Shown one piece after another: positions 17,486 to 60,998 of a stretch of 64,000 bases of DNA (positions are counted from its first letter, which is position 1; the number at the start of each line of letters is the position of its first letter). The notes beneath the pieces were generated by a model. The model was not told where the DNA came from and made no database searches. It saw only the letters and a program-made list of their open reading frames with translations. The DNA is from a virus (taxonomy: Duplodnaviria; Caudoviricetes). The DNA is taken from the IMG/VR virus record IMGVR_UViG_3300020577_009322, positions 1 through 64,000 of that record, one strand, 5' to 3'. The position numbers were made by a program, and so were the translations under genes.

Positions 17486-19698
17486 TTAAGCTGTAATCAT
17501 CTTCAGCAAAGCTGGACGTATAGCAAATTCTTTAAATTTTGGTAATACGCACAATTTCTTTAATGAGATAATACACAAATCTGTAGAAAGCATTCCACTT
17601 TCTAAGATCTCTGCATAATTAGTAACCATTTTCTTGGTATAATCCTTCTCATTAACTAATGCATAATTAAGAAGACGTTTAGTCATAATAGCAGCAATAT
17701 CCTGCCTTTTATCTTTACCTTCTTTAATTACACTTTTCAGTTCTTTCTTACTCCACTCAATATCATTAGTAAGTAACTGATGAGGACTAGCTAACTTATC
17801 CAAACCATTCTTAATAAAGGTAGTGAACAATACAATATGTTCATTTGGAAGTGATCCCATACCTAAATTCATGATCAGATCCAGATCTTTATTAAAGTCA
17901 GGAATACCACTAATACTATCAAAGTATTTAGTCCAAATCCTCAAATTACCTTTAGCTAAGGTATTACCCTCTTTATCTTTTTCTACAGCTCCCTCGATTA
18001 CCTCAGGGTGCTTGAGCATAAAATTAATCAATTCATATTCTCATCAAGCTCTTTATCTTGATCTCTATACCTTTATATATTCGTATAGTTTAGACTATAT
18101 CATCACCTATTTCATTATAGGTGTTGGGCGCTCGTGGATGGATTATATTCTCTTTCGAGTTTCACCATCTAGTCGTTGAACCGGCCATAGCCATTTAAGC
18201 TATGGATAGGCTGCTGATTACCTGTTTCACTACAGGCTTTCCAGCAATTCACCCAATTAAGATGCATTAACAAAAAACTAAAGTTTTACCACGAAACTTC
18301 TTACCAACCTTTATGGCATAGGCTATATTCTGGTAAGTTTTTCTATCTCCATTGGTATATTCAACATATTCTGTGATAGAGTCAAATATTCTCTTGTCTT
18401 CCACTACTAAAATTTTCTTACAAGTACCACTAGTTTGCTTATATTTAGGTATTTTCTTAACCTTCTTATAGCTCCATTGAAATCCTCCACTAGATTTATT
18501 CTTTAATCCATTTTGGACTTGAATACCTAATTGTCTTAGTACTTCTCTACCACTTGACCATTCTTTCAAGAAATTTCCATCTTTGTCATATTGAAAAACC
18601 TTTCTTGATGTAGAAGGGTTGTTCATTTGAGTCGTTGGAGTAAGAACTGTATTATATACAGGATTTAAAGACTGTATAAAACATTCCTCTTCTCTTATTA
18701 AATTTTTATGGTTACTTGAATTTAGATGGAATCTTTCATTATGTAATGATAGTATCTCAAATTTGAAATCATCTTCACCATATTTGTTGAATATTCTTTG
18801 TAATCTACTTACATGACAGTTATTTCTTTTTAGGTTATTTCTATGATCCTTGCACCTTTTTGAAAGGGAAAGAGCACTACCTATATAGAACAAACCATTA
18901 TGTAATGTGGTAATCTTATATATCCCAGATTTATCAGGAATATTTTGATAATCTTTAAACATTGTATATAATTTATACCAAATATAATACAATAAATCTA
19001 GACTATCAAATAATTTTGTATATTTTTTCACATCTGCCATCAACACCGTATCCTTCAGCAAATTCGGAAGCCCAGATATTAACATCTGCCTTCATATTTA
19101 TTTGTAAACGCCTGGTTTTCTGAGCACTATCTTCACTCTGAACCATAAAATCCTGATCACTTGGATTACAAGTTAATACAATTGTTGAACCTTCTGGTAA
19201 AGCCCAAGAGGTATATCTTTGTTCATCAATTAAAGTCATAGTGGCATTAGCCATCATTGGAGTACACCTGTTAAAATCATCCAATACCAATAATACTGGT
19301 TTATCCTCCTTACCTTGGATCCAACTAGGTTTAGCATATGAAGTTCTGCTCTCATTTAATGCTGTATAGCCCATTGTAATATAGTGAGATAATACTTTAT
19401 CTGCAACCCATAAACATTCCTCATTAGCAGTACCATGACCTTTACAGATCTTATACTCATAAAGTGGTAATCCAATCAAGTCGCATACCTCAATCTCTGA
19501 CACGTTTAACCTAACATAATTAAAATCCAATTCCTGACTTAACTGTTTAACTACAGAAGTTTTAGCTGTTCCTGGCATACCCTCAATTTCAATAGCAATA
19601 GGTACCTTCCCCGCTTTAGATAATTTTACGTTATTATCAACGAAATAATGTAATAAATTTTTAACTTGTAATGAGTTTAACTCGTTTTTGTGTGCCAT
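17486..19698 (-). CDS. MoxR-like AAA+ ATPase, spliced (exons 19698-19030 and 18028-17486; ~403 aa)
   Basis: Walker A GMPGTAKT, Walker B LVLDDFNR; junction VDGRC|INFMLKHPE restores a continuous frame. Confidence 0.85.
18029..19029 (-). mobile_element. Group I intron in the AAA+ gene
   Basis: P AATTGCTGGAAA, Q AATCAGCAG, R GTTCAACGACTA, S ATGATATAGTCT; exon ends in U and intron ends in G. Confidence 0.9.
18267..18962 (-). CDS. Intron-encoded GIY-YIG homing endonuclease
   Basis: SGIYKI...FYIGS; NUMOD-like VFQYDKDG; start at ATG 18962. Confidence 0.9.
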   Translation of the reverse strand: MFKDYQNIPDKSGIYKITTLHNGLFYIGSALSLSKRCKDHRNNLKRNNCHVSRLQRIFNKYGEDDFKFEILSLHNERFHLNSSNHKNLIREEECFIQSLNPVYNTVLTPTTQMNNPSTSRKVFQYDKDGNFLKEWSSGREVLRQLGIQVQNGLKNKSSGGFQWSYKKVKKIPKYKQTSGTCKKILVVEDKRIFDSITEYVEYTNGDRKTYQNIAYAIKVGKKFRGKTLVFC

Positions 19699-20048
19699 TT
19701 TCTCTGTTTTAATTGTTTTTTCTGTTCTTGTTTATTTGTTATTACACATGATCTTTCTATAACCTTATGTCTGCCAACTCTTGTAGATGATTCTTCTTTA
19801 TAACAATCTCTCTTTTCTGATAGAAAGGGTTCTATTGTTTTCCTATCTATTGTGTTAAATATTCTGTTAAATATTCCTTGCTCTCTTGATGCAAGAATTA
19901 TTGCTGAAGGATCAAAAAATGTTCGTAATTCCCAATAATCCTCATACTTATTAGTATTATCACAGAATATAGTTACTGCTAGTTCATTCATTTCCTCATC
20001 AGAACTTCTTATCATATCTACAAGTCTATGTATTAACTGCTTTTCCAT
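19677..20048 (-). CDS. Shared-motif small protein
   Basis: RLVDMIRSSDEEMNELAVTIF. Confidence 0.65.
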   Translation of the reverse strand: MEKQLIHRLVDMIRSSDEEMNELAVTIFCDNTNKYEDYWELRTFFDPSAIILASREQGIFNRIFNTIDRKTIEPFLSEKRDCYKEESSTRVGRHKVIERSCVITNKQEQKKQLKQRKWHTKTS

Positions 20049-20253
20049 TTTTTAAATAATTTTCACCTTCTTCTTTACCTAACTGATATGCTCTACCTGC
20101 CAGCAATGCTTTATATTGACTAGTTGAATAATCCCAATCTCTCGATGTTTCGAATTCTTTTCTTAATATAACTTTAGCCAACTCTTGCATTTCTTCATCT
20201 CCATTTAGCATAGCATTTAATCTATTTATTTCAGTCATCATCATCATAATCAT
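20026..20253 (-). CDS. Shared-motif small protein
   Basis: RLNAMLNGDEEMQELAKVIL. Confidence 0.65.
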   Translation of the reverse strand: MIMMMMTEINRLNAMLNGDEEMQELAKVILRKEFETSRDWDYSTSQYKALLAGRAYQLGKEEGENYLKNGKAVNT

Positions 20254-20635
20254 ACCGATTTGTAGATATATCTATAATCTTTTTACTATTCTCTTTTAAA
20301 AATTCACCAACTAAAGTTCTTTCTTTGAAAAATACAGATAACTTCTTTATCTTTTTATATTCATTTTCTATATCCATTAAAAGATATTGTGTTACTGTTG
20401 TTATTCCATTTTTGAGAAGATGTGATAGTAAATTTCTAAGATTCTTTATTTCCCTCTTTTGCTTTAGAAATAGATATTTCCCTTTCTCTCCATAAGAAAC
20501 ACCACCATTTAAATAGAGAAGGATTTTGTCCATGTCATCCATTTTTGCTGGTAACTTCTCTAACATTAGTCTTCCCAGTCTTCTCATGTTTTTATCTTTA
20601 GATATTAACATGTTATTTATCTTAGTGGGGTCCAT
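20231..20635 (-). CDS. Shared-motif small protein
   Basis: KINNMLISKDKNMRRLGRLML. Confidence 0.65.
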   Translation of the reverse strand: MDPTKINNMLISKDKNMRRLGRLMLEKLPAKMDDMDKILLYLNGGVSYGEKGKYLFLKQKREIKNLRNLLSHLLKNGITTVTQYLLMDIENEYKKIKKLSVFFKERTLVGEFLKENSKKIIDISTNRYDYDDDD

Positions 20636-20919
20636 AGTAATTCAAATAATTCTGTTTTAATTTTATCTGTTTCATTCACAAGTTTATTCATCTCAATATT
20701 AATTACTTCAAAAACAACTCTCTTTGCTCTATCTAAAGCATCATTTCTTAATTCAATAGTATAAGATGGTAAGGGCCATAAAATAGACATACCCAGGTCT
20801 TGCATCTCTATATCTTTACTATCGAGCATATCAAGAATCTTTAAATACTTCCTCAAGATTTCTGTAGATGATTCACTATCTTTCTTCATATCATTGTATT
20901 TCTGCAGAAATACCTGCAT
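20617..20919 (-). CDS. Shared-motif small protein
   Basis: KILDMLDSKDIEMQDLGMSIL. Confidence 0.65.
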   Translation of the reverse strand: MQVFLQKYNDMKKDSESSTEILRKYLKILDMLDSKDIEMQDLGMSILWPLPSYTIELRNDALDRAKRVVFEVINIEMNKLVNETDKIKTELFELLWTPLR

Positions 20920-21160
20920 CAGTTAATGCTACTTTTATAGGAAGTAACTCTTCCATACTACCATTTCTAACCATACATTTTCCCTTATAATGAATAAGAT
21001 AAGCACATTGTTCTGCCTGCTCAGGAGAGTGCTTGGCATACTTTATCAAGCACTCTATTACCCACTCAAATGTATTTACATCATCATTCCAGACAATTAG
21101 CTTATTTTCTAACAAATCATCAATAGAAACATCTGATATTTCTTCTACTTCTTTTACCAT
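20891..21160 (-). CDS. clpS: ClpS N-end-rule adaptor
   Basis: LIVWNDDVNTFEWVIECL...QAEQCAYLIHYKGKC. Confidence 0.93.
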   Translation of the reverse strand: MVKEVEEISDVSIDDLLENKLIVWNDDVNTFEWVIECLIKYAKHSPEQAEQCAYLIHYKGKCMVRNGSMEELLPIKVALTDAGISAEIQ

Positions 21161-21194
21161 GATTATCTTTGTTGTTTTAAATGATGTAAAAATT

Positions 21195-22344: not shown

Positions 22345-22345
22345 A

Positions 22346-24608
22346 TTAGTTAATTTTTATCTTTTTGGATGGGTGATTAAATTCAGTACTACCGTTCTGT
22401 GTAATAACCCAAAGCATTGGTATTTTACATAGTGATGGATTACTCTCGATATATCCATCAGTTAAAGTAATAGCACATGTCCAGTTCTTCTTACCCCTAT
22501 GCTTGTTAACATATTCAATAAAACAAGAAGCACGAGTTCCACCACCTCTAGTTCTTTTATATGTTAATTCACCCTTGTATTCATATGGTTCGTCAGCTTC
22601 AGCATCCCATAAGATAATATCAACTTTTACACCAGCTTTCCACATATGTTTTACCTGCCCATAGAATTCTTTTAATTCATGATCACTTACTGAACCAGAC
22701 GTATCCAACCCACAAACTATTCTAATCTTGTTTTTGTATTTATTAGATGGAGCATCTTCAAATCGAAAATTTGGACGTTTTCTAGTCTGATATATATCAG
22801 TAGTCAATGTGCTACCAATGAATCTATTAAAAAGAGTTTTCCAGGAAATTATTGGTGGTTTATTTCCAAAATCCTCTTTAAGAGAATTAGCTATATGAGC
22901 AGGAACAGTACCACGTAACTTTTCAGTTTCATCACCTATCCTCTTCATAATTTCCTGCATCTCCTTCCTAAACAATTCTTTCTCTTTATCACCCATTCCT
23001 TCAGATAACTCTTTCCATTTATCATGCCAATCTCCAATAGCTTCTTCATTATCTAAGAATTTATCCAATTCTTTACATCCACTTGTACCATTTCCATTTC
23101 CCTTTGGACCAGCCTTACTATCTTCCTTCTTTCCTTTAGAAGATTTCTTTTCTTCTTTAGCTTGCTGAAGACGATTATAGTAATAAAGAGATGATTGATT
23201 TTTCTCCAGTTTCAATTCAGAAAAATTCTCAATCATAACTATACCTGTATCCTTTCCGTCAGGAAATGTTAATGGAGCTTCTTCTTCCCCAATGCACTGA
23301 TTAATAGACATATCCATAGCTATATTAGCTATCATTTTGTCAGGAAACATTCCTTGACTTACATCAGATAAGTGCTCTCTTACTACGTGCTCTCACACTT
23401 GTTAATCTTTATATTTCTATAAAGGTCAGACTATTCCTTCAACCATTATTATGGTTGGTCTATTATAGTCGTTGAACCTCTTCTAGGTTGATAATTGTCA
23501 ATATATTCTTTAAATTTCAAGTATTTTCTATATAAATAAACAGAAGAATTCTTATACATATAATTATATAAAGTAATTGTATCATTCAAGCTAAATTTTA
23601 ACTCAAAGATATTTTTACTTTTATAACAATTCTTATTCTTTACTGGAAGATTCTTAGAAACTTCCTTCAAAAATTCTTCTGATCCAGAACAAAAGGAAGA
23701 TTTTAGGATTTTCCAATCACTTCCTTTTATATTAGTACATACTGTAACGCTTCCATCCCCATCAAAATAACCTCTTATAAAATGAGAAATCATATTTGAT
23801 GGTAGTTTTGGAAATCTAATAACTAGTGATTTTCTAGGTATGCAACCCAGATTTATCAAAGAGTCATACATTTTTCTAGAATCTATAGTTATCTTTCCTA
23901 TAGATTTTTTGAATTTCTTATGTACTTCTATTCTTATTGGTCCAGTGTAACTTATACACTCTTTAAAAATTTCAAGCCAAGAAATATCTGTACTAGATAA
24001 AATTACTCTACCTGTACTATTTTTCTTGTTTGTTGAAATATTTCCATCAGCATACATTACTCCTAACCAGTAACAACTCTGTTCATTTAATTCATTAAAA
24101 TACTCTTCATTAACTGAATATTTTCTTTTGTTTTGACCTCTATTATCATTCATATGTTCTAATTTATATATAAGAATATACATAAATTATTTCATATTAC
24201 CAAGAATTTGGCTGCAGATTTTCCAATTTTATCCATTTTTACCTTACCTAAATAATTAGTTTAGCCACACATTCGTTATTTTCTGTGCTTGGTAGAATAA
24301 ACTCTAAGGAGTTCCCTGCAATTTAAGACATTTTACACATACATTACTGTATGAGGAGCCAGATTTACGTTTAGCTCGTGGATCAATGTCCACTTCTTCC
24401 TACTATCATTATGGCACACTTCCTCCCACCACTTTTTACCCAAATATAAGGTAATATTATTTGAATTAATATGCTTACCTACACATGCTGTAGGTAACTT
24501 ATCATCAAATGTTTTGTTCAGTTCTGCTAAGAACAATCCATAAAATATATACTTACTGTCACATAACATAGTAAATATAATATCTTGTAATGATTTTTCG
24601 TGATCCAT
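22346..24608 (-). CDS. HExxH metallopeptidase plus VWA-domain protein (DUF2201-like), spliced (exons 24608-24373 and 23393-22346; ~427 aa)
   Basis: Splicing CT|A rebuilds HELEHVVREHL; ANIAMD; MIDAS DTSGS, GGGT, LTDGY. Confidence 0.85.
23394..24372 (-). mobile_element. Group I intron inside the HExxH motif
   Basis: P AATTGCAGGGAA, Q AATCTGCAG, R GTTCAACGACTA, S AAGGAATAGTCT; U/G junctions. Confidence 0.88.
23449..24183 (-). CDS. Intron-encoded LAGLIDADG homing endonuclease
   Basis: WLGVMYADG and FIRGYFDGDG double motif; lies between Q and R. Confidence 0.92.
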   Translation of the reverse strand: MYILIYKLEHMNDNRGQNKRKYSVNEEYFNELNEQSCYWLGVMYADGNISTNKKNSTGRVILSSTDISWLEIFKECISYTGPIRIEVHKKFKKSIGKITIDSRKMYDSLINLGCIPRKSLVIRFPKLPSNMISHFIRGYFDGDGSVTVCTNIKGSDWKILKSSFCSGSEEFLKEVSKNLPVKNKNCYKSKNIFELKFSLNDTITLYNYMYKNSSVYLYRKYLKFKEYIDNYQPRRGSTTIIDQP

Positions 24609-25651: not shown

Positions 25652-26225
25652 GCAATGCTAAAATTCTGCTATCAACATTTACTTCACTTAAATCTTTTAT
25701 ACTTTCTATAGATTCTGGATCTTCTATTAAAGGTAATAAGTTAACTCTCTCCGCTAACATAAATATATATATATTATCCAAAGATAGGTTTTTATTTCTT
25801 AAAGTATAAGATCTATGATAAGATAATATATCTCTTATACTATTAATTTTTCCCTCTATTATCTTTTTACAAAAGGTTGGAGTAGGATATCTAAAGAAAG
25901 GTTTCATCAACTCAATATCACTCTTAAAGTACTTTTCCTTACACAAATCATTAAATACATCCATTCTACTCTTAGAAATTTTTACCTTCTTTGTCTTCTT
26001 ATTATATACCATCCACTGTAATAACTCACTCTTTTTATAGAAGGTTCCTGTATTACTAACTTTAATTGTATCACATATTTTATAGTATCCTATCTTCTCT
26101 TCATTATCTATTTTCTTACTATATAAATTATCTGATAATCCATAATGGAAAAATATGTATTTTTGTAACTGTTTATCTTCCAATTCAAGAAATTCATCTA
26201 TATTCATATTTTCCTTATTTATCAA
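25503..26225 (-). CDS. Hypothetical protein
   Basis: 240-aa ORF coupled to the rIIA-like gene. Confidence 0.6.
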   Translation of the reverse strand: MINKENMNIDEFLELEDKQLQKYIFFHYGLSDNLYSKKIDNEEKIGYYKICDTIKVSNTGTFYKKSELLQWMVYNKKTKKVKISKSRMDVFNDLCKEKYFKSDIELMKPFFRYPTPTFCKKIIEGKINSIRDILSYHRSYTLRNKNLSLDNIYIFMLAERVNLLPLIEDPESIESIKDLSEVNVDSRILALHEFKCKLQDVSKLQERYDKWNSEQSKKYDSLYGSRANNPWNQAIQIVDS

Positions 26226-28473
26226 AATCCATCTTATAATACTTCCAATTCATCTTTATCGTTCTTTGTCTTGCAATATCATGCATGGCACGTATTGATT
26301 TTTCCTGATAAGTATTTCCCTTTTGTACAGTTAACATTCCACCCAAAGCGAAGAAATCAACAAAATCAAATTTGTCAATATCTTCTTTTACTTTATTATA
26401 TGTTTCCCATATTTCACTATCATATAATTTCAATGTATCTACCAAATCTACCAAATCTTTCATAAAATCCTCGTGTCTATGAGATATATCTGTACAATAT
26501 ACTTTGGCATATTTCTGTAATTTTTCTAAATCATCTCTAAATTTAGATGATAGAAAATTACCTATTATTTCCTTATTCCTAAAAGTACTAAGATATTCAT
26601 TCATCATTTTATCTATTAGATAGGCTGTAACCCCTCTCCCAACAGTCTTATGTTTACCCTTGAAGAATTCATCTACTTCCATAAAGTTATGTAATTTTAA
26701 TTGTTTTAGATAAGTTTGCTGTCTTTCTGTAACTATACATGCTTTAACTGTAGTACCATCATGAAATAATCGATAGACTAAATCTAACTTCCTACGTTTA
26801 TCTTCAGTACCATAGACATGAAAAAATGGTCTACTATATAAGTCTTTTACTTTGATTATTCTCTCTTCAAATTTGCATGACCAATCAGATGACCTCTTAT
26901 CCATTGGTTTACAATATTTTACACCAATCTCTCCAGACATATCTACTAAAGATACTTTCTCTTTCTTATTTGGTGTCTTTCTGACTGTTGTGTTAAAATT
27001 AGCAGGAATCTTTATATTACTTACTTTAATCAGATAATCTTTCTCAATAGAATCCTCTACTAGTTTGGCTTGTCTTATTGAATCTCTCCATAGATTTATT
27101 CCTGATGATAGGTAAGTAGATCTCATAGTAGCTTTACTACATAAACCTAGTAATCTTGTATAGGATAAATCTACTTTCTCTAAACATATCTTGTTCTTTT
27201 TATAAAGACCTGCTCCTTTATACTCACTATTTATATAGGATGCCATTTTCTTACTAATAGGAATATCAACTAAAATCTTTTTATCATGCTGCCAGTGCAT
27301 CCAGTATCTAGGTTTTATTTTGGAACCAGTATTACTGATATCATTAATATTAAAATATAGATTCTTTCCATTAGAGGTAGAAGATAGAAATTTCTGAATT
27401 ACTTTATCATTTACATCTTTAAATTCTATCTCCTTACACTTTTCTAAAGAAAATGGTAATAGACTATCAATTATATAGGTAACTCCTTCTATATTAACTC
27501 TTTTAGAAGACCCCACTAACTCAATATATTTCTTAACAGATGTCAACTCATCTGGTATATTCTTGTTATATCTTTTAATAAACCAGGTAGATACCTTCTC
27601 TATCTTCTTCTTGATAATCAATTCATAATCAATAGTATATTGTAGATTTTCTCGAGTTAAATCAGCATTCAATCCATCTGCCATGCTAAATTTTAAACCT
27701 ATATTTAAATGAATAGGTTTCATTCCTAATCTCTCCCAATTAATAGGATAGTAATACTGATCCAGGCAGATATGCATATCTGCATTCTTTGAAAGTGTAG
27801 ATATCTGAATATCATCTGTTTGAAATATTTTAAACTCACTATTTAATGTCAGTAGTTCTCTATAACGGCTAATGAGAGTAGGATCAAACTGAAACATTAT
27901 ATCCTTAAAATAACATAACTTTCTCTTCATGTTTTCTATAAAAAGAGAAATTGTTGAGGTATCATATCCAAGTGAAGATCCTACTAAAACCTCAAACAAT
28001 ACATATTTATCTTCAGTAGTTTCTTCATATTCACTTATGTTATGAGTTAATCCCACTCCCTCTACTTCCTTAAGAATAGCATTGAATTTTCTGCCGTTCT
28101 TTACTACTGTATATTTCCATTCAGGTTTAAAAGCTGATACTGATATACTACCAATACCATGCTCCCCCATCTGACAATTTTCACTACTTGTTTTCTCTGT
28201 AGACTTTTCACTCTCCAGGATAGTACATACTGTTTTCTCAAAATGTTCCCTACTATCAAAGGATTTACCGGTATCCCTCACATAAAATATATAATCACCT
28301 TTCTCTAGTTTTATTCCAACTTCTACAGGATCTGTTTGTCCTATAGAACGATGACTATCTACTGCATTTTGACAAATCTCACTAATAAATGAGTATTTAT
28401 CACTGTATAATTTTTTTCCAAATACCTGATGTAATTTTGCTGTGTTTCCACTTAATCCTAGCTGTTTCTCCAT
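26215..28473 (-). CDS. GHKL (Hsp90-like) ATPase, RIIA-like
   Basis: LYSDK...EICQNAVDSH, VRDTG, MGEHGIG, LTRENL. Confidence 0.8.
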   Translation of the reverse strand: MEKQLGLSGNTAKLHQVFGKKLYSDKYSFISEICQNAVDSHRSIGQTDPVEVGIKLEKGDYIFYVRDTGKSFDSREHFEKTVCTILESEKSTEKTSSENCQMGEHGIGSISVSAFKPEWKYTVVKNGRKFNAILKEVEGVGLTHNISEYEETTEDKYVLFEVLVGSSLGYDTSTISLFIENMKRKLCYFKDIMFQFDPTLISRYRELLTLNSEFKIFQTDDIQISTLSKNADMHICLDQYYYPINWERLGMKPIHLNIGLKFSMADGLNADLTRENLQYTIDYELIIKKKIEKVSTWFIKRYNKNIPDELTSVKKYIELVGSSKRVNIEGVTYIIDSLLPFSLEKCKEIEFKDVNDKVIQKFLSSTSNGKNLYFNINDISNTGSKIKPRYWMHWQHDKKILVDIPISKKMASYINSEYKGAGLYKKNKICLEKVDLSYTRLLGLCSKATMRSTYLSSGINLWRDSIRQAKLVEDSIEKDYLIKVSNIKIPANFNTTVRKTPNKKEKVSLVDMSGEIGVKYCKPMDKRSSDWSCKFEERIIKVKDLYSRPFFHVYGTEDKRRKLDLVYRLFHDGTTVKACIVTERQQTYLKQLKLHNFMEVDEFFKGKHKTVGRGVTAYLIDKMMNEYLSTFRNKEIIGNFLSSKFRDDLEKLQKYAKVYCTDISHRHEDFMKDLVDLVDTLKLYDSEIWETYNKVKEDIDKFDFVDFFALGGMLTVQKGNTYQEKSIRAMHDIARQRTIKMNWKYYKMDFDK

Positions 28474-36371: not shown

Positions 36372-37544
36372 TTAATCTTCTGTTAAATAGTGATAGGTTC
36401 CGCCACTTCTATGACAAATATTTTTTAAATCTCTATTACTCTGCATTAGACAGAGGGCATGTATTTTTATTGTAGGATGAAAAGATGGATCAACAGAATC
36501 ACTTCCATCATTAATTATCATTATCTCAAAATGATCCTCAGATAGTTTATAGGGATCACCCATTCCCTTAAACTTTGGTAATTCTCTCTTCTTTATAAAT
36601 GAAATAGTATCCTTAACACACTGATTAACATCAGTTGTTCCTTTGTTTAAACATATAAAATTCAAGTCGGAATACTTCATTCCTTTCTCAATTTTAACAA
36701 ACCCAAAAACTTCTGTTATAAAAGTACCAATATAAACATTATGTGCTTCACAGTGATCTCTTAGCTTAAGAGTAATTGCTGCCTCTAACATTCCTTTCTT
36801 GATATAGTCACTCATACTACCGCTATCATCTATAAGTATAATGAGATTTTGTGCTCTATCAGCTTTGCTAAAACGGGCTCTTACGTATAAGTCTTTAGCT
36901 GTAAGCTTTCTGGAAAATCCTGGTAAAGCTACTTCTACCAAATCCATATTATGGATCTCTGAGAAGTCTTCCATAGGAGTATATTTAACCATCTTTCCAC
37001 CATTATCCTTTACTTTCCTTCCTGATATTGCCTGAAAGGCCTTTTTTCTTGAAAGTAATGCTAAATATTTTATAAAATTAACATTTAGAGAAAGAATACT
37101 ACCTAAGGAATTATCCTTTTCACCTTCACCTTGATTTTCACGATAGTGATTCAGTATGTTTTTTAGATGATTATCTATATCTCCTTCTCCTTCTCCTTCT
37201 TGTTCTCTGTTCTCAAATTTGTAAGATAATACAGTTGCTACCTTAAGCATATCTGTAAAAGAGAAAGATTCTTTACGGATTTTTTTAACAAACCTCTTCT
37301 CCTCATCTCTTAATTGATGAATACTATCTTTATCCCTCCTAGTTTTACAATTAAAGAAATCATAATTAATATCTTCAACCGTCTTAATATCCTCTCCTGC
37401 CATTGTACAGGAGAGAGAATTATAGAAATCTTTTACTCTATGAGGAGATACCTTTCCCTGAAGATTTTCCTTCTTCAGAAATTCATCTATCTCTTTAGTA
37501 GTAATAGCTTCTATATTAGCCGCTTTTTCGAAAAATCTATCCAT
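36372..37544 (-). CDS. VWA domain protein (ViaA-like partner)
   Basis: MIDAS LIDDSGSM, GTTD, INDG; adjacent to the RavA-like ATPase. Confidence 0.85.
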   Translation of the reverse strand: MDRFFEKAANIEAITTKEIDEFLKKENLQGKVSPHRVKDFYNSLSCTMAGEDIKTVEDINYDFFNCKTRRDKDSIHQLRDEEKRFVKKIRKESFSFTDMLKVATVLSYKFENREQEGEGEGDIDNHLKNILNHYRENQGEGEKDNSLGSILSLNVNFIKYLALLSRKKAFQAISGRKVKDNGGKMVKYTPMEDFSEIHNMDLVEVALPGFSRKLTAKDLYVRARFSKADRAQNLIILIDDSGSMSDYIKKGMLEAAITLKLRDHCEAHNVYIGTFITEVFGFVKIEKGMKYSDLNFICLNKGTTDVNQCVKDTISFIKKRELPKFKGMGDPYKLSEDHFEIMIINDGSDSVDPSFHPTIKIHALCLMQSNRDLKNICHRSGGTYHYLTED

Positions 37545-38532
37545 TTAATATAATATTTGATATTTCACAAATTATTTGTCTCATTGCAGCACCTATAGAG
37601 TCCTTCAATTCTACATATGTAGCATATGTAGAGGATTCGTAAGAACGATTATCCAAATCAGAAATAATTACTCCTAGTTGCTCATACGTTTCCTTAAGAG
37701 ACTGTGTATTAGCACTATCTCTACCTGTGAATAGAGATTTATAATCACCCTCTTTCTTATAAAGAAAGTCTCTTTCTTGTTTTTCTTTCTTTTCCTTTCT
37801 TATTTTGTCAATAATTTCCTCAGTTAACCCAAAATATTTAAGGTTCTGAAGATCATTTGTTGCTTTATATACTTCTGCCATGTGAATAGCTGTACGAGGA
37901 CTAACGAAATCCCCACTCTCATTTATCTTGTGACATATTTGGGCTATTTCTGGATAGTTATTTTTCAAAACTTTTGCAAACATATGATCATAATCATTTG
38001 CTTCATATTTTGGCCACTCAATCTTCATCTCCAGTGGAAAACGTTCCAGCAAAGCCTTAACTGAGTTATCTTCACTTACTTCCTGTTTAGTACGGTTAGT
38101 AAGACATATTACCAATTCAGTACGAATCTTAAACTGTTGCTTACCTTGTCTAAAGATACCTGATGTTAGAATATCTTTTAAAGATAATAATACGTTCATA
38201 CGACTATCCAGTAATTCCTCAAAAACGACATATTTCTTGTTCATAAATGAGTTCTCTACGAGATATTCTATTTCACCAGTCCTCTGAAATTTCTTCATAT
38301 CAATTCCACCAAACATTTTATCTTCAGTCATACCTTCTCCACATGCTTGAACAAATGTCTCTTGACCATTCTTATCTATATACTTTAGAAATTCATTAAT
38401 TATTTCACTTTTAGCATGACCACCTCTTCCATACAAGAAGATATTTTTCTTGGTAAGAAAACCAATCTCTAATATATTAGCCACTTCTTCTGCATATACA
38501 AACTTTTCCAGTAATACGTCTCTTAAATTCAT
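37537..38532 (-). CDS. MoxR/RavA-like AAA+ ATPase
   Basis: YGRGGHAKS, VFEEL, TN, ALLERF. Confidence 0.85.
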   Translation of the reverse strand: MNLRDVLLEKFVYAEEVANILEIGFLTKKNIFLYGRGGHAKSEIINEFLKYIDKNGQETFVQACGEGMTEDKMFGGIDMKKFQRTGEIEYLVENSFMNKKYVVFEELLDSRMNVLLSLKDILTSGIFRQGKQQFKIRTELVICLTNRTKQEVSEDNSVKALLERFPLEMKIEWPKYEANDYDHMFAKVLKNNYPEIAQICHKINESGDFVSPRTAIHMAEVYKATNDLQNLKYFGLTEEIIDKIRKEKKEKQERDFLYKKEGDYKSLFTGRDSANTQSLKETYEQLGVIISDLDNRSYESSTYATYVELKDSIGAAMRQIICEISNIILNG

Positions 38533-38549: not shown

Positions 38550-39620
38550 TTAAATGTATTTTACTTTTTCCTTATCGAAGAACATCAAAGCTGTTGATAT
38601 TCTATCGATTTCAAAATCCTCATCGCTAACTACTATATGAATAGAAGCTTTTTTCTCAGGATTATCATATTCTAATCCTAGAAAACGACAAATCTTTTGT
38701 GCTGTATCTTCAGGATTTCCTGAAGTATAATTAATTAGTCCTATATTTATAGGAACAATTGTTAGACCAGACTGTGCCATTTTTATTGTTACTAAGCAAT
38801 TACCTTTCCCGTTACAGAAATTAGATAATACTCCCTTTTCTTTATTCTTGGAATGATACACGGGATATCCTAGCTTATCTGCTATCTCAGTAACTCCACA
38901 AAAGCATAGTACTCTTTTTCCAGAGAAGGAAGAGAGTAACTCTTTTGTTTTCTCCATCTTTGCTATAGAATTCTGAATAAGGGATATTTGCTTTAAATAA
39001 ACAAAAAAGGAGTCTTTTTTCTCCTTTTCTAATTTGCTATAGGCATTTTTCAATATCTCGAACTGTTTCTTTTCTGTTCGTTTATTAGGTAGCAACTTAC
39101 TATTATCTAAAGCTACTTTGTGAATGAAAATTTCATAATCACACAATATTCCTTCTTCAACAGCCTGTTCTATAGGATAGTCATAACACACATCAATATC
39201 TGCAAGATTACTTATTTCTTCCTGTGTTTTTTTGGTTATGGTACCACTTAAGGCTAATACCTTCTTTGGATTTATCTTCTTTACAGAACATAGTTGGTTA
39301 GAAGAGCATTCATGTATCTCATCTATAACTAATATATCATAATTGTTAATAGATACCTTATGAAGAGAGCGGTGAGTAGTATATTCTATCTCACCATCCC
39401 ATCCCCATTTTTCTTTGTCTTTTTCCCAACTATCCTTTATATCCAGACGTGGAATAGCTATTAGAGCCTTTTTAATCAAATCTCTCTTAAAGATATCTAA
39501 GGTAACCTTTATTTTTCCAAATCTAGGTGCACATTTAAGCAATGAATGGTATTTTCCACTATAACTATTTACTGCTTCTAACTGTCTTATCTTTCTTATC
39601 CCTTGGTCTTCTATTAGCAT
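38550..39620 (-). CDS. Superfamily 2 helicase
   Basis: APRFGK, VIDEIH, LSGT, QKICR. Confidence 0.85.
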   Translation of the reverse strand: MLIEDQGIRKIRQLEAVNSYSGKYHSLLKCAPRFGKIKVTLDIFKRDLIKKALIAIPRLDIKDSWEKDKEKWGWDGEIEYTTHRSLHKVSINNYDILVIDEIHECSSNQLCSVKKINPKKVLALSGTITKKTQEEISNLADIDVCYDYPIEQAVEEGILCDYEIFIHKVALDNSKLLPNKRTEKKQFEILKNAYSKLEKEKKDSFFVYLKQISLIQNSIAKMEKTKELLSSFSGKRVLCFCGVTEIADKLGYPVYHSKNKEKGVLSNFCNGKGNCLVTIKMAQSGLTIVPINIGLINYTSGNPEDTAQKICRFLGLEYDNPEKKASIHIVVSDEDFEIDRISTALMFFDKEKVKYI

Positions 39621-40260
39621 ATCTTTCTTTCTTTAATTCTGAATATGGTTTAACTTTATTCTCCTCGCTTGTTAGATAAATTAGATAATTTTTGTATTTA
39701 TGATCCTTTTTAGCATATCTATTCAATGTTCTATTTTTGGATCCTATATACTCTCTAAGTAATCCTATACTATTAAATCTTTTGATAAGAATTCCATTAA
39801 GAGTGAAAAGACTAACTTTAATTGAATGAATTTGTACTCGTTTAATAACACGCTTACCTTCTGCTATGGCCTTCTTCATAGATAAAGAAATCCTCTCTCT
39901 TGTAGAAATAGTTGGAGATATTTGATAGTTTAAATCTACTAATCTTCTCTTATTATACTCCGGAGAGATATAATCCATCCAATGTTGCTCACGATCCTTT
40001 AATAGTATTCTAATTTTATCTTTTGATAAATTTTCACAATCTAAAATCTCAAGAATCTTAATATCAAACTTATCAATTCCATATTTATTGAAAGCATTCT
40101 GTAAATGTTTATTATGAATTCTACCCGTCTTGTTAAGACAAAGATAAGTATGTAACCTATTATATAGGTCAATAGAAGATCCTATGTAAGACTTTCTATT
40201 GACCTTATTAATTATCTGATAGATTCCAGATTTGTATCTTATATTTTTCTCTATTTTCAT
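39565..40260 (-). CDS. Free-standing GIY-YIG homing endonuclease
   Basis: SGIYQI...SYIGSS; no intron core nearby. Confidence 0.9.
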   Translation of the reverse strand: MKIEKNIRYKSGIYQIINKVNRKSYIGSSIDLYNRLHTYLCLNKTGRIHNKHLQNAFNKYGIDKFDIKILEILDCENLSKDKIRILLKDREQHWMDYISPEYNKRRLVDLNYQISPTISTRERISLSMKKAIAEGKRVIKRVQIHSIKVSLFTLNGILIKRFNSIGLLREYIGSKNRTLNRYAKKDHKYKNYLIYLTSEENKVKPYSELKKERYANRRPRDKKDKTVRSSK

Positions 40261-40328
40261 AGAATGAATATAAAAAATTTCTAGAAACTTTCCAAATCTA
40301 TTTACTGGGAGCTACCTTTATTAAACCA

Positions 40329-40682
40329 TTATCTTACTATATTACATTTACCTCCTATACATAACTTCTTCAGAGTCTGTAAATTAATATTTCTGATGCA
40401 ATCTCCTGTATTGTGTTTACAGGCTTCTTTTACTTTTACATATCCCAACATGAGATCTTTCTGACTCTTTAGAAATTGACCGTTTATTACTCTTTTAGTA
40501 CCCTTCTTTGTAATAAATGTGGCTGTAAAGAAACGGCCCTTACTAGTAGACATTAGCTCATATGCCCTTTTTCTGGAAATTATATTTTTTACTATTTTAG
40601 GTATAGTAATTTTTGGTATTGGTATAGTAGTTATCTTAGTCTTGTTAGTGGAGACTACTACTGGTTTTAGTTTGTTTTTCAT
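40329..40682 (-). CDS. Conserved phage SH3/WYL-like protein
   Basis: GRFFTATFITKKGTKR...RNINL.TL. Confidence 0.55.
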   Translation of the reverse strand: MKNKLKPVVVSTNKTKITTIPIPKITIPKIVKNIISRKRAYELMSTSKGRFFTATFITKKGTKRVINGQFLKSQKDLMLGYVKVKEACKHNTGDCIRNINLQTLKKLCIGGKCNIVR

Positions 40683-48530: not shown

Positions 48531-49937
48531 CTATTGAAATTCTGTCTTAACAACGGTATTTAGAAGTGTTGATACCTGTTTAGCCATATCATCAAGATTA
48601 GTTACTATAGTATGGTAGGTATATATCTCTTTCACTTGACCCAATTCTACACCTACACCAACAGTAACAAAGCCATCCCTTTTACATTTTTCAATAGTCT
48701 GCTTCATTTCCATAACAGCTGAACGACCACCATATCCTGAGGCACAGGGTAAACCATCTGAAATAACGATAAAGATAATATTATCGTCAGTAAAAGAACG
48801 AACCTTATCGTAAATGGCTTCAATAACAGGTCCGTCATAGTTTCCACTCCAGAAAGCATTCCTCTGCCATCCGATGGCTCTCTCAAAAATATGGTTGTAC
48901 TTATCATTGTAGATATTTATATGTGGCATGCCAGCATCATCTGTAGAATGACCATATACAAAAATCTTATCTGCAGGAAGGATGGATGATAGACATTTCC
49001 ATAATATCTTCATAATGGAATGCTGACTATCTGCTTTAGTAGAATGGTATTTTCCATCTATTCCTCCCATACTACCACTTTCGTCCATCAAGATACATAC
49101 GGAGAAAGGTTTGGTTGTCTGATTCTCTTGTTCATTATAATAGACATGAAAATTACCAGCTTTAACTTCTGCTAACTTTCTACTATCTAACTTTCCTGTC
49201 TTCAGACCATTTACTCTATCATGTTGCGGATCAAAAGATATATCAAGTAAGTTTACCAAGTGTCCTGCATATAGATTTTCTAATTCATTATACTTACAAG
49301 GTGCTCCCTTCGAAGGTACAACTCTCCATCTTACCTTATCCTTCATTTCACAAATAGATCCTTCTACATCTAACCATTTCGTTCTTCTCGGAATAACTTT
49401 CTCGATAAGTTCTCTGGCATTGTCTAGAGCAGCTTCAATACTCATTTCACCACTATCTCCTTCATCCTCACCACCCCCTTCTCCCCTACTATCCTCCTGA
49501 CCCTCACCTTCATCTCCTTCTTCTCCCTTACCTTCTCCATTTTCCTTTCCATCGTTCATTGGAAAAAGGAACTCACTTTTCTCGATTATACTCCGATAGT
49601 GAGTAAATAAATTCCCCAACTCAGTATCTTTAGCTACACTATCTAACACATTCTTTTTTGCTGTTTCAGATACAGAGAGAAACTTTTCCTCCTGACCAGA
49701 AAATGGATTTTTCCTTTCTATTGAGGTAGCTTTATCTAGAAAGTGATCTATTAACTTATTCTCTTTTATTTTGAGAAGAAATATATCAAGCAACTTGTTA
49801 GCAGAATATCCACTCAACTCTATACTTTTAGGTAATTCCCTCTCAATATCAAAGGGTACTTTAACTTCAGGATAGTCGAGTAAAACTTTATGATAACCAC
49901 CAAAGTAAGAAGATTCCCATTTAGTTGATGATTCCAT
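48531..49937 (-). CDS. VWA domain protein (CobT/CbbO-like)
   Basis: Acidic Gly/Glu linker, TGKLD, LMDESGSM, NYDG, ISDG.P. Confidence 0.88.
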   Translation of the reverse strand: MESSTKWESSYFGGYHKVLLDYPEVKVPFDIERELPKSIELSGYSANKLLDIFLLKIKENKLIDHFLDKATSIERKNPFSGQEEKFLSVSETAKKNVLDSVAKDTELGNLFTHYRSIIEKSEFLFPMNDGKENGEGKGEEGDEGEGQEDSRGEGGGEDEGDSGEMSIEAALDNARELIEKVIPRRTKWLDVEGSICEMKDKVRWRVVPSKGAPCKYNELENLYAGHLVNLLDISFDPQHDRVNGLKTGKLDSRKLAEVKAGNFHVYYNEQENQTTKPFSVCILMDESGSMGGIDGKYHSTKADSQHSIMKILWKCLSSILPADKIFVYGHSTDDAGMPHINIYNDKYNHIFERAIGWQRNAFWSGNYDGPVIEAIYDKVRSFTDDNIIFIVISDGLPCASGYGGRSAVMEMKQTIEKCKRDGFVTVGVGVELGQVKEIYTYHTIVTNLDDMAKQVSTLLNTVVKTEFQ

Positions 49938-52202
49938 TATTTTATCTTTGTTTGTCCTAAAATAGCCTCAATAGACTTTAATCCTTCCTTACTTCCAATT
50001 CCTTTACAGATAGTAAAGAATGAGTCATATATGGTAAAACCATCCCTAACCAATTCTGCTACTAGCTTTAAGTGCCTGATAGACAAATTAAAGGAGATAG
50101 TATACTTATCATGAGCAGTATTTATGTCCTCATAACACTTAACAATTCTGTCAATATCTTTAGGAGATACTGTTGGAGTATGGTAAGTTAATACTTCTTT
50201 AACTTGATTGGTTGTTAGTGGATCAATCTCAATAAGCATGAACCTATCTAATAAGGCTCTATCCAATTTATGTGTACCTGTATACTGACTACCCAAGTTA
50301 GCAGTAGAGATAAATACACATTCAGGATGTACCTTAATTGGCTCACAATCATCAAAACAGTATTCCATTGACAGTTCTTTCCTGAAATCCGTACATGGGA
50401 ATAGGAGGTTATTTGCGGCTGCTGGAGCCATATTGTTATCGTATCGACTCTTTATTCGATACTTCTGTATCTTTATCTATACATACAGTTCAGACTATAT
50501 CATCATGATTTCTCATGTCGGATGTTCGTGGATATATTATATTCTCTTTCGAGTTTCAATATCTAGTCGTTGAACTCGCACTAACCATTTAGATTAGTGA
50601 TAAGCTGCTGATTACCCTCTTCACTAAGGGCTTTCCAGCAATTTATCCGATTTTTTACAAGACGCTACTCCATATAGGAAAACGTGTATTTTTTCCGCAA
50701 AGTTTTACCCTTACCTAAGCAAATTGAAGAAATAGAAGCACAAGTAGAATCAAAGTTGTCATTTGACAGAGATCTGGCTGCTTCTGCTATATTTGCAAAT
50801 ATAGATTTTTTACCAGTTGATAATTCTGTCATGATAACTGACCTCCACTTCCACTTAGAGCGTTCTATCCCATAAGAATAGTTAGGAACTTCTATATAAC
50901 TCCAATAATAACCACCCGCACTAAAAATTTTACCTCTGGCACAAGCAGATATCATGTTATTACATACTTTTGTTTTTCTACCTGCCTCTCTGGTTGAAGG
51001 AAAATTAGCTAATAATCTACCATCTAAAGTATATTGATAAACTTCCTTACTAGTAGATGTGCAATTATTTTGAGTAGTTGGATCCAACTCACAATTAAGT
51101 GTTGGACCTAATAGATCTATCCATTTCTTCTCTATCTTTCTAACTTCAGAAGAATCTTCGGTCTCCAGGATTTCTAGTACTGAGAAATACATATAATCTT
51201 CTCCATATTTATTGAAGATATTCTGCATTCTTGGATTATCCGATTTCCCACCTCTCAACTTTTGCTTGTGTTCAGCTAATCTCTTCTTAATATTTATCGA
51301 ACTACCTACGTAATTCTGCTCCTTTGCTTTAATATAGTAAATACCCGATTTACTAATTACACGTTTTGATTCATCACTAAATAATTTGTACATTGTTTTT
51401 CTTACAATATACAAATATTTGATGAGATATCCTAATTTAATTTTTAACGACTTATTTCATCTAATAACACAATACCTGGTTTCTGAATAACCTCAGAGAA
51501 ACGACTCCTGATGAACTCGGAGGTGGTATGTCCATCTTTTACCTTAATAGCATGGGTTCCAACTAACGACATAACGGGATCACTCATTGTTCCCATATCG
51601 AAGATAGTTAATGGTAATCCCATTTTCTTTGCCAAATTACTAACCAATTCTGTTTTACCTCATCTTGTTATCGTAAAGATTCTTTATTCTTTACTTCTGC
51701 ATCTTTTTATATTCATGCAGTTCAGACTATATCATCACCATTTCTAGTGTCGGGCACTCGTGGGAGAGATTATTGTTGAGCTCACTCTCCTAGTCGTTGA
51801 ACCTTCTAAACTCCTTTATCTCAAGTTTAGCTTGGCTGCTGATTGGCCGTTTCACTACGGCTATTCCAGCAATTCACCCGATTTATACTGGGCTAGGTAA
51901 ACCTAACTCCTTATCCATCTAGTTAATTTCTTACAATGTACGAAAATTATTGACAAATAGGACTATTAGGCTATATTTATTTTAACACCAGTTGGACCCA
52001 ATAGCATACTATTGACGCCCTTCAATATATTCCTCTCCAGAATCTTATACACACCTACTTGTACCTTAAAGTAGTCATTCAAGGATACATAACCATTTGT
52101 AATCTTCAGATCAGCGGTACTTACTGCAGTTTTAATAGGATCTGTTTTTCTTTTTGCTCTTGGCTTACGTACTTTGGTCACCACTTCTCTTTCTGTTGTC
52201 AT
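49937..52202 (-). CDS. CbbQ/NirQ/CobS-like AAA+ ATPase, spliced from 3 exons (52202-51985, 51660-51447, 50428-49937; ~307 aa)
   Basis: Splicing rebuilds Walker A GPTGVGKT and LLDEISR|APAAANNLLF; STAN, DRALLDRF, SIR.L. Confidence 0.88.
50429..51446 (-). mobile_element. Group I intron just after Walker B
   Basis: AATTGCTGGAAA, AATCAGCAG, GTTCAACGACTA, ATGATATAGTCT; U/G junctions. Confidence 0.9.
50665..51414 (-). CDS. Intron-encoded GIY-YIG homing endonuclease
   Basis: SGIYYI...YVGSS; NUMOD1-type repeats. Confidence 0.9.
   Translation of the reverse strand: MYIVRKTMYKLFSDESKRVISKSGIYYIKAKEQNYVGSSINIKKRLAEHKQKLRGGKSDNPRMQNIFNKYGEDYMYFSVLEILETEDSSEVRKIEKKWIDLLGPTLNCELDPTTQNNCTSTSKEVYQYTLDGRLLANFPSTREAGRKTKVCNNMISACARGKIFSAGGYYWSYIEVPNYSYGIERSKWKWRSVIMTELSTGKKSIFANIAEAARSLSNDNFDSTCASISSICLGKGKTLRKKYTFSYME
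51661..51984 (-). mobile_element. ORF-less group I intron inside Walker A
   Basis: AATTGCTGGAAT, AATCAGCAG, GTTCAACGACTA, ATGATATAGTCT; GT|A junction gives Val. Confidence 0.88.
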
Positions 52203-54824: not shown

Positions 54825-54841
54825 TTTCTTTTTGTTAAAGT

Positions 54842-56340: not shown

Positions 56341-56538
56341 ACATTATGACGACACCAATAAATTAATCCTTCCATTCCACTGCTGGACATTCATTCTTAA
56401 TTGCCTTAAACAGTACCTCAAATATCCTTCCAACGATGCAATGGCCGGGGCTTTTAATCCTGGCGTTTTCTCAATTACTGAGTAGATGGCGTTTAGCTCC
56501 TCGTTTACACCTTCACTCTCGGCTTTAAAATGCACCTT

Positions 56539-56573
56539 TTTTACACCTTCATTTACACCTTCATTTACACCTT
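56539..56573 (-). repeat. 12-bp tandem repeat AAGGTGTAAATG (GVNE) in a foreign-looking fragment
   Basis: tttacaccttca repeated on the + strand. Confidence 0.7.
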
Positions 56574-57268: not shown

Positions 57269-57562
57269 TTTTAAAGTTGTTTAGTTTGTAATCTTAATTT
57301 AGTTAAGTCTGATCTTTACTTTCTGTTTTGAAATTTCCAATTGGCTTTCATTGCAGCCAGTTTTATCTTTTCTTCTGGTGTCTTTTTGAAGACAGAGAAA
57401 TCAATGGAAAACTTCATTGAATTAATTTCTCTCTGAATGATACTCTTCTGAAGAGAGTATGCCTCACTTTCCATAATTTCTTTAAAGCTTGCTTCTTTTG
57501 CCATTTTTATTTGTTTTTAGAGTTAAAAAATGGTCACCTATAAGGATGGCCAAATCTGGTTG

Positions 57563-57995
57563 TGGAGGTGTTGGGTTACGAACCCAAGTCTTTCCCTGTT
57601 TCAATTTGTAAGTTACATGCATGTAGGTTTTTTATTGAGGTAACTACCCTCTATTCCTTGTGAAGGACAACTCTTTGTAATTTTTCAAGGTGATTTATGA
57701 AGAGATTACCAACTCTTCCTCATAACGGATTTCACATTCCTAGACAAGTGAATTGCTGTCTTATCCAATTTTGAAGTTACGCAGCTACTGCTACGTTAGC
57801 AAAAGCCATATTAATTAGCTTTGCACCCTCTGCTTGATGATCAACTGTGTTGTCATTTAATTGTTTGTATAAATTTGTTGGCTTTCCTTAACTTGTCCCG
57901 CTAGATGGGAGATCTCGGTACTTACTTTAGGCACTATATACTTTGAGCCTGCACGCCTACTCTTATTCACATTGAAATCAATTCAACTCACCCCC
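57563..57995 (-). ncRNA. ssrA: tmRNA
   Basis: 5' GGGGGTG pairs with 3' CACCTCC-A including G3-U70; T arm TTGGG-TTCGTAA-CCCAA; internal tag ORF ending VAVAA*. Confidence 0.9.
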
Positions 57996-58028
57996 ATATT
58001 ATTATGCAATATATATGAAACATTTTTA

Positions 58029-59712: not shown

Positions 59713-59877
59713 AATTTCTTTTTTAGTTCGTTTAATTGAGATATTCTTAGTAAGAGTATTTTATGCCATTTTTCTTTTACATCTTCTTTTACACATCTCT
59801 CATAAATACGAGTTGCATTAATAACGCTTCTCTTCATATACTCCACTTTCTGTTGTATACTTTCCATGATTGAATTT

Positions 59878-59908
59878 AAAAAAGGAGATCCTGTAATAGG
59901 ATCCCCTT
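59878..59908 (-). terminator. Intrinsic terminator
   Basis: Hairpin with CTCCTTTTTTAAATT tail. Confidence 0.7.
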
Positions 59909-59930
59909 ATTTCTCTAGGTACTCTTATTA

Positions 59931-60998
59931 TTAGAATATCTTAAAAGAACTGTGTTTCACTTCTGATTTTCTTATAGAAATCATCATATTTTTGTAGTTA
60001 CTATCATTTCCATTCTTTTTAACAACAAAGTTCATTTTATCAAAGTCGGGCTCTTTCTGGATATAATATACATCACCATCATTGCTTGTAATGTAATTAC
60101 CTCTCTATCTTTTAGTTGCAGTAACTCTTTCAATACAAGAGCGTCCAACTTCTTCATGGATTACCACCTCTTTGCCACCGGAGATTTGAACGATATCATA
60201 AGTAAGATCTTTTCTCTCCAGATTGAAGTGTTCACAACAGGTATATGGCTCCTCCTTGTGGATATTTACTTCACTTACAATAGATTTTACGATATCTACT
60301 GTAATGATTTTTAATGGTTTGAGAAATTCCAGGATATTTTTCTTGAATTTTTTCTCAATGAGACAATCGTCCACGATCTCTGTAATTTGCTTTAGCGAGA
60401 GATCCTTGAAGGTTTTGAGATATCTTATCCTCCCAGGCCTGTTTAACATATTGTCATTGAGCCACAACTCATTAGTAGTCAGGATAAACACCTTCCTATA
60501 TCCCGTTTTGTATACTCCATCCATAAGGGATAGCAAAGTTGGATCACCATTGCTTTTGTCATAGCCGTATTCATCCTCACTGATACTACCCTTAAATGTC
60601 TTTTCGTACTCGTCAATTACAATAGTAACATTCTCCTGTAGATCAGAAAGAAAGCTATTTAATCCAGGATAGTTTGATGTTATTAGGAGGATTGGCTGCT
60701 TTAATTCATTAGCTAGTAATTCTGCAGTAATCGTTTTGCCAGTACCTTTTACCCCGTTCATCAGAACACCAAGATTACCTTTCGTAGAGAGATATGTTTT
60801 GCATACCCTTCTTACAAAGTCTGTCTCCATTCCATATACTTTGAAGTCAAACGTAAACGAGTCTGCCATTTCCTTCAGATATATTCCCTTGATATCATCG
60901 AATTCAATAGTATACACCTTCTTCTCAAGAATAGGAATAGTTCCTGTAATATCTTTCAAGAACAAACAATTTCCAGATTTAGCCCATGTTTTTTTCAT
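59931..60998 (-). CDS. AAA+ ATPase with an in-frame TAG at 60105-60107; frame continues to TAA near 59931
   Basis: GVKGTGKT, IDEYEK, LMDG, TTN, RPGRI. Confidence 0.8.

Follow-up and report, generated by a model that had tools for sequence, protein, structure and literature searches.

Three MoxR-type AAA+/VWA gene pairs, ClpS, an Hsp90-like ATPase and a probable divergent tmRNA in the replication-side block of a distant crAss-like phage

We analysed the first 64 kb (64,000 nucleotides, hereafter the window) of the IMG/VR virus record IMGVR_UViG_3300020577_009322, a complete phage genome of 155,463 bp with direct terminal repeats and a G+C content of ~31%. Its terminase matches solely crAss-like phages of Bacteroidota, at ~26% identity, indicating a distant crAss-like phage. 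Genes between ~3.9 and 75 kb lie on the minus strand and include those for ribonucleotide reductase, RecA, a DnaB-like helicase, a DEAD-type helicase and an ATP-dependent ligase; from ~75 kb on, the plus strand carries the terminase, portal and major head protein genes together with giant open reading frames (ORFs) of 3908 and 2170 aa, encoding very large virion proteins. All protein-remodelling elements of the window are on the minus strand, in this replication-side block, within one co-oriented 44-kb stretch: three distinct pairs of a MoxR-class AAA+ ATPase and a VWA-domain protein (pairs A, B and C), a stand-alone AAA+ ATPase, a ClpS homologue, an Hsp90-like GHKL ATPase and a transfer-messenger RNA (tmRNA). 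We think it probable that this early/middle block accumulated several separate protein-handling modules through independent acquisitions, rather than housing one built-in machine. The three pairs and their introns are laid out as follows.

17486-18028, minus strand: AAA1 exon 2 (pair A), C-terminal helical part; contiguous with exon 1 in intron-less homologues
18029-19029, minus strand: AAA1 group I intron, 1001 nt, with a GIY-YIG/NUMOD1 endonuclease ORF (18267-19085); RF00028 at 83.6 bits (18072-18322)
19030-19698, minus strand: AAA1 exon 1, with Walker A GMPGTAKT and Walker B LLVLDD; exon ends TGT
22346-23393, minus strand: zincin-VWA exon 2 (pair A), remaining zincin and VWA domain, with DTSGS at the metal-ion-dependent adhesion site (MIDAS); DUF2201_N, DUF2201
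23394-24372, minus strand: zincin-VWA group I intron, 979 nt, with a LAGLIDADG ORF (23449-24183); two RF00028 halves
24373-24608, minus strand: zincin-VWA exon 1, ending ...TLIHEL; splicing rebuilds HELEH
36372-37544, minus strand: VWA2 (pair B), helical N-domain and VWA domain; MIDAS, Foldseek VWA domains
37537-38532, minus strand: MoxR2 ATPase (pair B), bpMoxR family; PF20030 at 70.6 bits, AAA_5 at 38.9 bits
48531-49937, minus strand: CobT-like VWA protein (pair C), MIDAS DESGS; CobT_C at 3.8e-4, slightly below cut-off; phrog_1576, phrog_17276
49937-52202, minus strand: CobS/GvpN-like ATPase (pair C); exons 52202-51985, 51660-51447 and 50428-49937
51984-51661, minus strand: CobS intron 1, splitting Walker A; RF00028
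51446-50429, minus strand: CobS intron 2, after DEISR, with a GIY-YIG ORF (50665-51414); RF00028

In pair A, AAA1 matches the Pfam models AAA_3 (2.6e-7) and AAA_5, both over cut-off, and phrog_1297 at 2.4e-21, and its partner exceeds the cut-offs of DUF2201_N and DUF2201 and matches phrog_1314 at 5.5e-43. Joining the AAA1 exons yields a 403-aa frame without a stop, and joining the zincin-VWA exons yields an open 427-aa frame in which HELEH forms a complete HExxH, a motif present at this position in all intron-less zincin-VWA homologues. The AAA1 junction was placed by alignment to the intron-less locus L128, and the exons are likewise contiguous in L004 (3484|3485), L056, L144 and G005; both pair A junctions are collinear with intron-less homologues (these five loci and L002), and both introns obey the U/G rule, the 5' exon ending in U and the intron in G. 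The MIDAS motif DTSGS is invariant in the homologue alignment. The GIY-YIG domain of the AAA1 intron ORF has a Pfam match, and the two RF00028 halves of the zincin-VWA intron, each sub-threshold (24180-24320 at 28.7 bits, 23407-23548 at 33 bits), flank the LAGLIDADG ORF. An intein was ruled out because the three pieces of the zincin-VWA region lie in three different frames, with stops, and a split gene without an intron was ruled out by the position of the sole internal ATG, past HExxH, together with the flanking RF00028 halves.

Searches for related loci used alignments as queries; with single proteins, MoxR2 retrieved no locus and zincin-VWA one. The zincin-VWA gene precedes AAA1 in 74 of 80 IMG/VR loci; the gap there is 33 nt at the median and never exceeds 818 nt. 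In the present genome 2.6 kb separates the pair, and of the seven small ORFs in that interval one encodes ClpS. By tblastn, pair A was found in N4-like phages and in the jumbo PBS1-like phages, and it is annotated as N4 gp24/gp25 type in Achromobacter phage JWAlpha.

Pair C is also interrupted. Joining the three CobS-like exons produces an open 307-aa frame in which GPTGVGKT and VLLDEISR are restored, and the exons are exactly contiguous in ~25 intron-less homologues (junctions 9283|9284 and 9496|9497 in L119). The two introns match RF00028 at 88.9 and 64.1 bits, and exon 3 matches GvpN (TIGR02640) at 5.6e-7 as well as phrog_249. The CobT-like gene directly follows the CobS-like gene, as it does in nearly all of 32 loci, and all 28 homologues aligned keep its MIDAS residues D285, S287 and S289. 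In four loci (L126, L134, L140 and L142), among them contigs of 206 and 248 kb, the CobS-CobT pair is present twice in tandem. CobN (PF02514) was not found across the 155-kb genome with a model that was positive in five control genomes, which rules out a cobalt chelatase.

Pair B is uninterrupted here. The VWA2 protein carries a MIDAS (DDSGS) whose residues D239, S241, S243, T304 and D346 are invariant in 24 homologues; its own Pfam match, to VWA_CoxE, is weak, VWA_CoxE or VWA_2 match 12 of the 24 homologues, and Foldseek returns VWA domains for its AlphaFold2 (AF2) model. It lies directly downstream of MoxR2 in 74 of 80 IMG/VR loci. Across these 80 loci no window ORF besides VWA2 is conserved next to MoxR2, and neither a third component nor an effector domain was found; the 144-aa ORF downstream of the pair has no Pfam match. 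A comparison of the VWA2 and CobT families with hhalign was weak (34% probability), and the two are therefore not close paralogues. The relatives of pair B lie on contigs of 100-166 kb. In INPHARED, MoxR2 has relatives only among MoxR ATPases of Sulfolobus monocaudaviruses, and its cellular homologues, on Planctomycetota chromosomes, are fused double-MoxR proteins of 719 aa from Pirellulaceae. At the Stieleria marina chromosome locus L159 (9851-13492), as at other Pirellulaceae loci, the 719-aa double MoxR is followed by a 492-aa ORF. Further MoxR2 matches, at 40-46% identity, occur in metagenome-assembled genomes of the candidate phyla radiation, which may be mis-binned phage contigs. A reading of the window from its sequence only (the sequence-only reading) had called pair B RavA/ViaA-like; this holds in a generic sense and no further, because the score against the RavA NCBIfam model is 20.5 bits, with a cut-off of 681. 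The same reading's claim that there are three distinct AAA+/VWA pairs was borne out by MoxR-clade matches, Walker motifs and a MIDAS in all three VWA partners.

Four group I introns were found in the genome, all within these genes. Genome-wide, RF00028 gave five matches, all in three of the MoxR/VWA genes, and none in the ribonucleotide reductase, polymerase-side or structural genes. The introns sit at or near catalytic motifs, namely Walker A, the region after Walker B, and HExxH. As had been proposed, two of the three pairs become visible only after splicing, the joined frames being open and collinear with intron-less homologues. In relatives, the VWA2, MoxR2 and GHKL genes also occur in pieces ~1 kb apart, some of the gaps holding a LAGLIDADG ORF (G003 113142-114987; G004 39218-40477; MoxR2 in G024, G025 and G027; GHKL in G011, G012 and G017), and these families are therefore recurrent homing targets. 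The confinement of introns to this gene set fits targets that are widely shared among related phages.

Four further elements complete the set.

20891-21160, minus strand: ClpS homologue, between the pair A genes; PF02617 at 58.1 bits (cut-off 23)
26215-28473, minus strand: GHKL ATPase, Hsp90-like, 752 aa; Bergerat motifs, AF2 model
57560-57995, minus strand: probable tmRNA, divergent; tag of 25 codons, ending ...ANVAVAA; RF00023, full-length
60105-60998, minus strand: AAA4, stand-alone classical AAA+; PF00004 at 41 bits, phrog_2376 at 9e-53

At the sequence level the GHKL protein matches sacsin and Hsp90 models weakly and reaches no Pfam cut-off, but all 33 homologues aligned share its Bergerat residues E32, N36, D39, D67, G69, G103, G106 and G108. 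In its AF2 model (predicted local distance difference test score 84.6), residues 3-354 match HSP90B best (Z 17.2, 294 residues aligned), with TopoVI-B (Z 16.0) and MORC2 (Z 15.0) 1-2 Z units behind; the predicted fold thus appears closest to Hsp90, with these two close behind. In a search of 1.1 kb, the tmRNA aligns full-length to RF00023 with E 3.5e-13 and 37.4 bits, short of the Rfam cut-off of 47, and ARAGORN is negative; the acceptor and T-arm of a tRNA-like domain are present, as is a tag frame ending in AA, and the gene is probably a genuine but divergent tmRNA. AAA4 belongs to a widespread family (phrog_2376), with tblastn matches in 396 phage records. With these, every gene that the sequence-only reading had listed is accounted for at its coordinates by motifs, Pfam, phrog and Rfam matches.

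To assess how unusual the set is, we screened for seven elements in 35 large IMG/VR phage genomes, each selected because it has one or more of them, and added 20 further genomes picked for ClpS (55 large phage genomes in total). The genome studied here holds all seven elements, and none of the 35 holds more than three. MoxR2 is present in 22 of the 35 (it was selected for), zincin-VWA in 13 (6 of the 13 selected for), CobT in 7 (selected for; none also with MoxR2), GHKL in 14, all inside the MoxR2 group, ClpS in 3, AAA4 in 4, and a tmRNA over cut-off in 19. Neither MoxR2 nor CobT occurs in any of the 20 ClpS-picked genomes. MoxR2 and CobT are together in 0/55 genomes, and so are all three pair types. 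The richness that had been claimed for this window is therefore real. The three VWA/MoxR families match in different organism groups within a collection of 50,697 cultured or deposited phage records, and a megablast of 3.9 kb against these records gave no match. We found no paper on MoxR in crAss-like phages.

The closest uncultured relative probably carries homologues of MoxR2 (62%), CobT (57%) and GHKL (54%), each on a contig of 164,602 bp, probably one and the same contig; a 153.5-kb contig represents another closest relative. Pairs A and B are both present on the 17-kb fragment L002. In L128, CobS-CobT, zincin-VWA, AAA1 and ClpS lie inside 12 kb, and several elements cluster in L125 as well.

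One real association between modules did emerge, that of ClpS with pair A, which is a new lead. A zincin-VWA gene is present in 29 of 31 ClpS-bearing phage records and in 13/13 of the near-complete ones. Broken down by how the records were obtained, it is present in 11/11 found through other queries and in 18/20 picked solely for ClpS (10/10 of those at least 90% complete). Within the MoxR2 clade, pair A occurs in 2 of 22 genomes, exactly the two with ClpS. Besides the present genome, ClpS lies between the pair A genes in the fragment G041 (IMGVR_UViG_3300017978_000430, 8151 bp), where zincin-VWA, ClpS, MoxR2, VWA2 and AAA1 are contiguous, ClpS and the pair B cassette being inserted between the pair A genes. 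The converse association fails, as most zincin-VWA genomes are without ClpS; IMG/VR contains 263 ClpS loci and over 549 zincin-VWA loci. Among the 20 ClpS-picked records, the distance from ClpS to zincin-VWA is a steady 11-18 kb, so many of these 20 probably represent one lineage and independent events are few.

Compared with E. coli ClpS (1mbu/3o2b alignment), the phage protein keeps N34, D35, D36 and H66, has M40 replaced by F and T38 by N, and bears an N-terminal extension of ~18 residues. In two other phage copies (L031:4083-4337 and L138:10945-11154) the NDD and His of the pocket are gone (KNI...N and KTK...N in their place), and not all phage ClpS proteins can therefore bind N-degrons canonically. 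ClpS was not found in a Bacteroides thetaiotaomicron control genome. The protein encoded here would most likely deliver substrates whose N-termini are suitable to a Clp unfoldase-protease of the host. As a tentative idea, ClpS may work with the zincin-VWA/AAA pair as its third member in a phage 'cut-and-degrade' device: the VWA MIDAS would grip a client, the zinc-protease head would cleave it and the AAA+ ring would release it, after which ClpS would read the newly exposed N-terminus and feed it to the host Clp protease. The association of ClpS with pair A thus provides a specific hypothesis on the N4-type pair that can be put to the test.

Beyond ClpS and the zincin head, no proteolysis machinery was found in this phage (ClpA, ClpC and ClpX were not searched for); neither SmpB nor an intact ClpP is encoded. 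On the plus strand, in the structural block, a CLP_protease-fold match (108145-108483, 23.4 bits) contains two in-frame stops and could represent a prohead protease whose reading crosses a break. A fifth AAA+ protein, BCS1-like, lies outside the window at 75658-76854 (L118:5658-6854) in two ORFs. Its BCS1_N part stops at TAA 76147-76149 and the frame of its AAA part begins with the TTG at 76156. The two halves align to positions 24-174 and 194-415 of phrog_7485; the gene could be split, could carry a frameshift or could look broken through an error in sequencing.

What is shown here concerns the identity and motifs of the genes, how they splice, how the pairs are linked and where they occur; any clients, timing or cooperation of the modules are inferred. 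Each pair is a self-contained two-gene unit. By analogy with characterised MoxR-VWA systems, the MoxR-class AAA+ ring would supply ATP-driven force and the VWA partner would hold the client through its MIDAS metal ion. Pair A, with its zinc-protease head, can probably cut its client, and pair B is the core cassette in a large clade of 100-166 kb phages. The Hsp90-like GHKL protein, AAA4 and the BCS1-like AAA+ would add ATP-driven remodelling capacity, and the tmRNA would rescue stalled ribosomes with host SmpB. The cassettes are separate and distributed independently, which points to an accumulation of modules and not to one programme.

Two observations weigh against independent accumulation. 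The clustering of elements in L128 and G041 could mean cooperation, and the nearest relative seems to share MoxR2, CobT and GHKL, which, together with L002, suggests that selection may have kept the set in a small lineage and that it need not have come together by chance.

Among other explanations, it is unlikely that the MoxR-VWA pairs serve as virion assembly chaperones that fold, process or assemble structural proteins. Iyer et al. 2021 propose a virion-assembly role for the jumbo-phage MoxR/peptidase-vWA pair and, according to the same authors, a role in tail development is reported for Acidianus two-tailed virus (PMC7824862). This proposal with its archaeal-virus precedent, the Sulfolobus monocaudavirus ATPases as the sole INPHARED relatives of MoxR2, and the very large virion proteins of this phage would all suit such chaperones. 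The pair genes, however, lie among replication genes, with the structural block on the other strand, a position that argues against a purely late role in virion assembly without being decisive, and pairs A and C are patchy in relatives of the same virion type.

We are also doubtful that the pairs are conflict modules, acting in anti-defence, superinfection exclusion or inter-phage competition as bpMoxR proteins do in bacterial MoxR-vWA ternary conflict systems. Membership of MoxR2 in PF20030 and its homologues in Pirellulaceae, the patchy distribution, the tandem duplication of CobS-CobT in four loci and the repeated invasion of pair genes by homing elements are all consistent with conflict. 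PADLOC, however, gave no defence-system match for any pair member, neither an effector domain nor a conserved third component accompanies MoxR2, and the near-universal presence of MoxR2 in its clade better suits a core function.

The sequence-only reading had further inferred a heavy investment in chaperoning and proteolysis control. That the pairs, AAA4, GHKL, ClpS and tmRNA form one integrated programme, jointly chaperoning and degrading proteins that bear phage peptide tags, we regard as quite improbable. The co-oriented 44-kb stretch, the clusters in L128, G041 and L125 and the co-occurrence of ClpS with pair A speak for such a programme. Against it, each module has its own distribution, with disjoint MoxR2 and CobT sets, tight linkage is confined to the pairs with no other neighbour conserved, the tmRNA is routine whichever pairs are present, and proteolysis machinery is scant.

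This genome is a compact place to study pair function, as it brings together three pair types, ClpS and an Hsp90-like protein in one complete sequence. Few phage genes without known clients are as widespread as those of MoxR-VWA pairs; to our knowledge, N4 gp24 and gp25 are core genes whose function has been unknown for decades. Nearly all members of a large clade of environmental crAss-like phages carry the bpMoxR-VWA cassette, and the GHKL proteins form an Hsp90-like family of ~750 aa that has no Pfam model and occurs only on phage-sized contigs.

Set beside known systems, pair A shares its two-gene architecture, an AAA+ ATPase with a DUF2201_N zincin/DUF2201 VWA protein, with N4 gp24 (AAA ATPase)/gp25 (vWFA), a type whose function is listed as unknown in N4-like phages (PMC2784036), and with the MoxR/metallopeptidase-vWA pair described for group 2.2 jumbo phages by Iyer et al. 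2021 (PMC7824862). It differs in that both of its genes are split by group I introns, and they stand 2.6 kb apart with ClpS between them, against the median of 33 nt. Pair B resembles the bpMoxR-vWA-beta-propeller ternary systems (PF20030), relatives of the conflict systems of MoxR-vWA ternary type described by Kaur et al. 2020 (PMC7159879), in its bpMoxR ATPase, the MIDAS-bearing VWA protein downstream and the Planctomycetota homologues. It differs in being binary, with neither a conserved third gene nor an effector fusion across the 80 loci, and phage MoxR2 is unlike the fused double MoxR of Pirellulaceae. Pair C consists of the same kinds of genes as CobS/CobT of the aerobic cobaltochelatase and the phage 'cobS/cobT' genes (phrog_249, phrog_17276; Rhizobium phage RHEph10), in the CobS-then-CobT order of about 30 phage loci; in contrast to the chelatase, it is without CobN, its CobT_C match falls slightly below cut-off and its ATPase gene holds two introns.

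The GHKL protein shares the Bergerat N-box, G1 and G2 with Hsp90/HtpG, whose ATPase and middle domains are, by a narrow margin, its best structural match, but it stays under every Pfam cut-off and the likeness covers residues 3-354. Phage ClpS is akin to the N-degron adaptor of ClpAP in its Pfam score, pocket residues and N-terminal extension, and departs from the E. coli protein at the gatekeeper M40 (F) and at T38 (N); ClpS genes are also reported in jumbo phages (Iyer et al. 2021, PMC7824862). The tmRNA has a tRNA-like domain and a tag ending in AA in common with those encoded by huge phages (Al-Shayeb et al. 2020, PMC7162821), and differs in its sub-cut-off score, in being missed by ARAGORN, in its long 25-codon tag and in the lack of a phage SmpB. 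Each piece is of a known kind, with precedents in N4 gp24/gp25, phage CobS/CobT, jumbo-phage ClpS and phage tmRNA.

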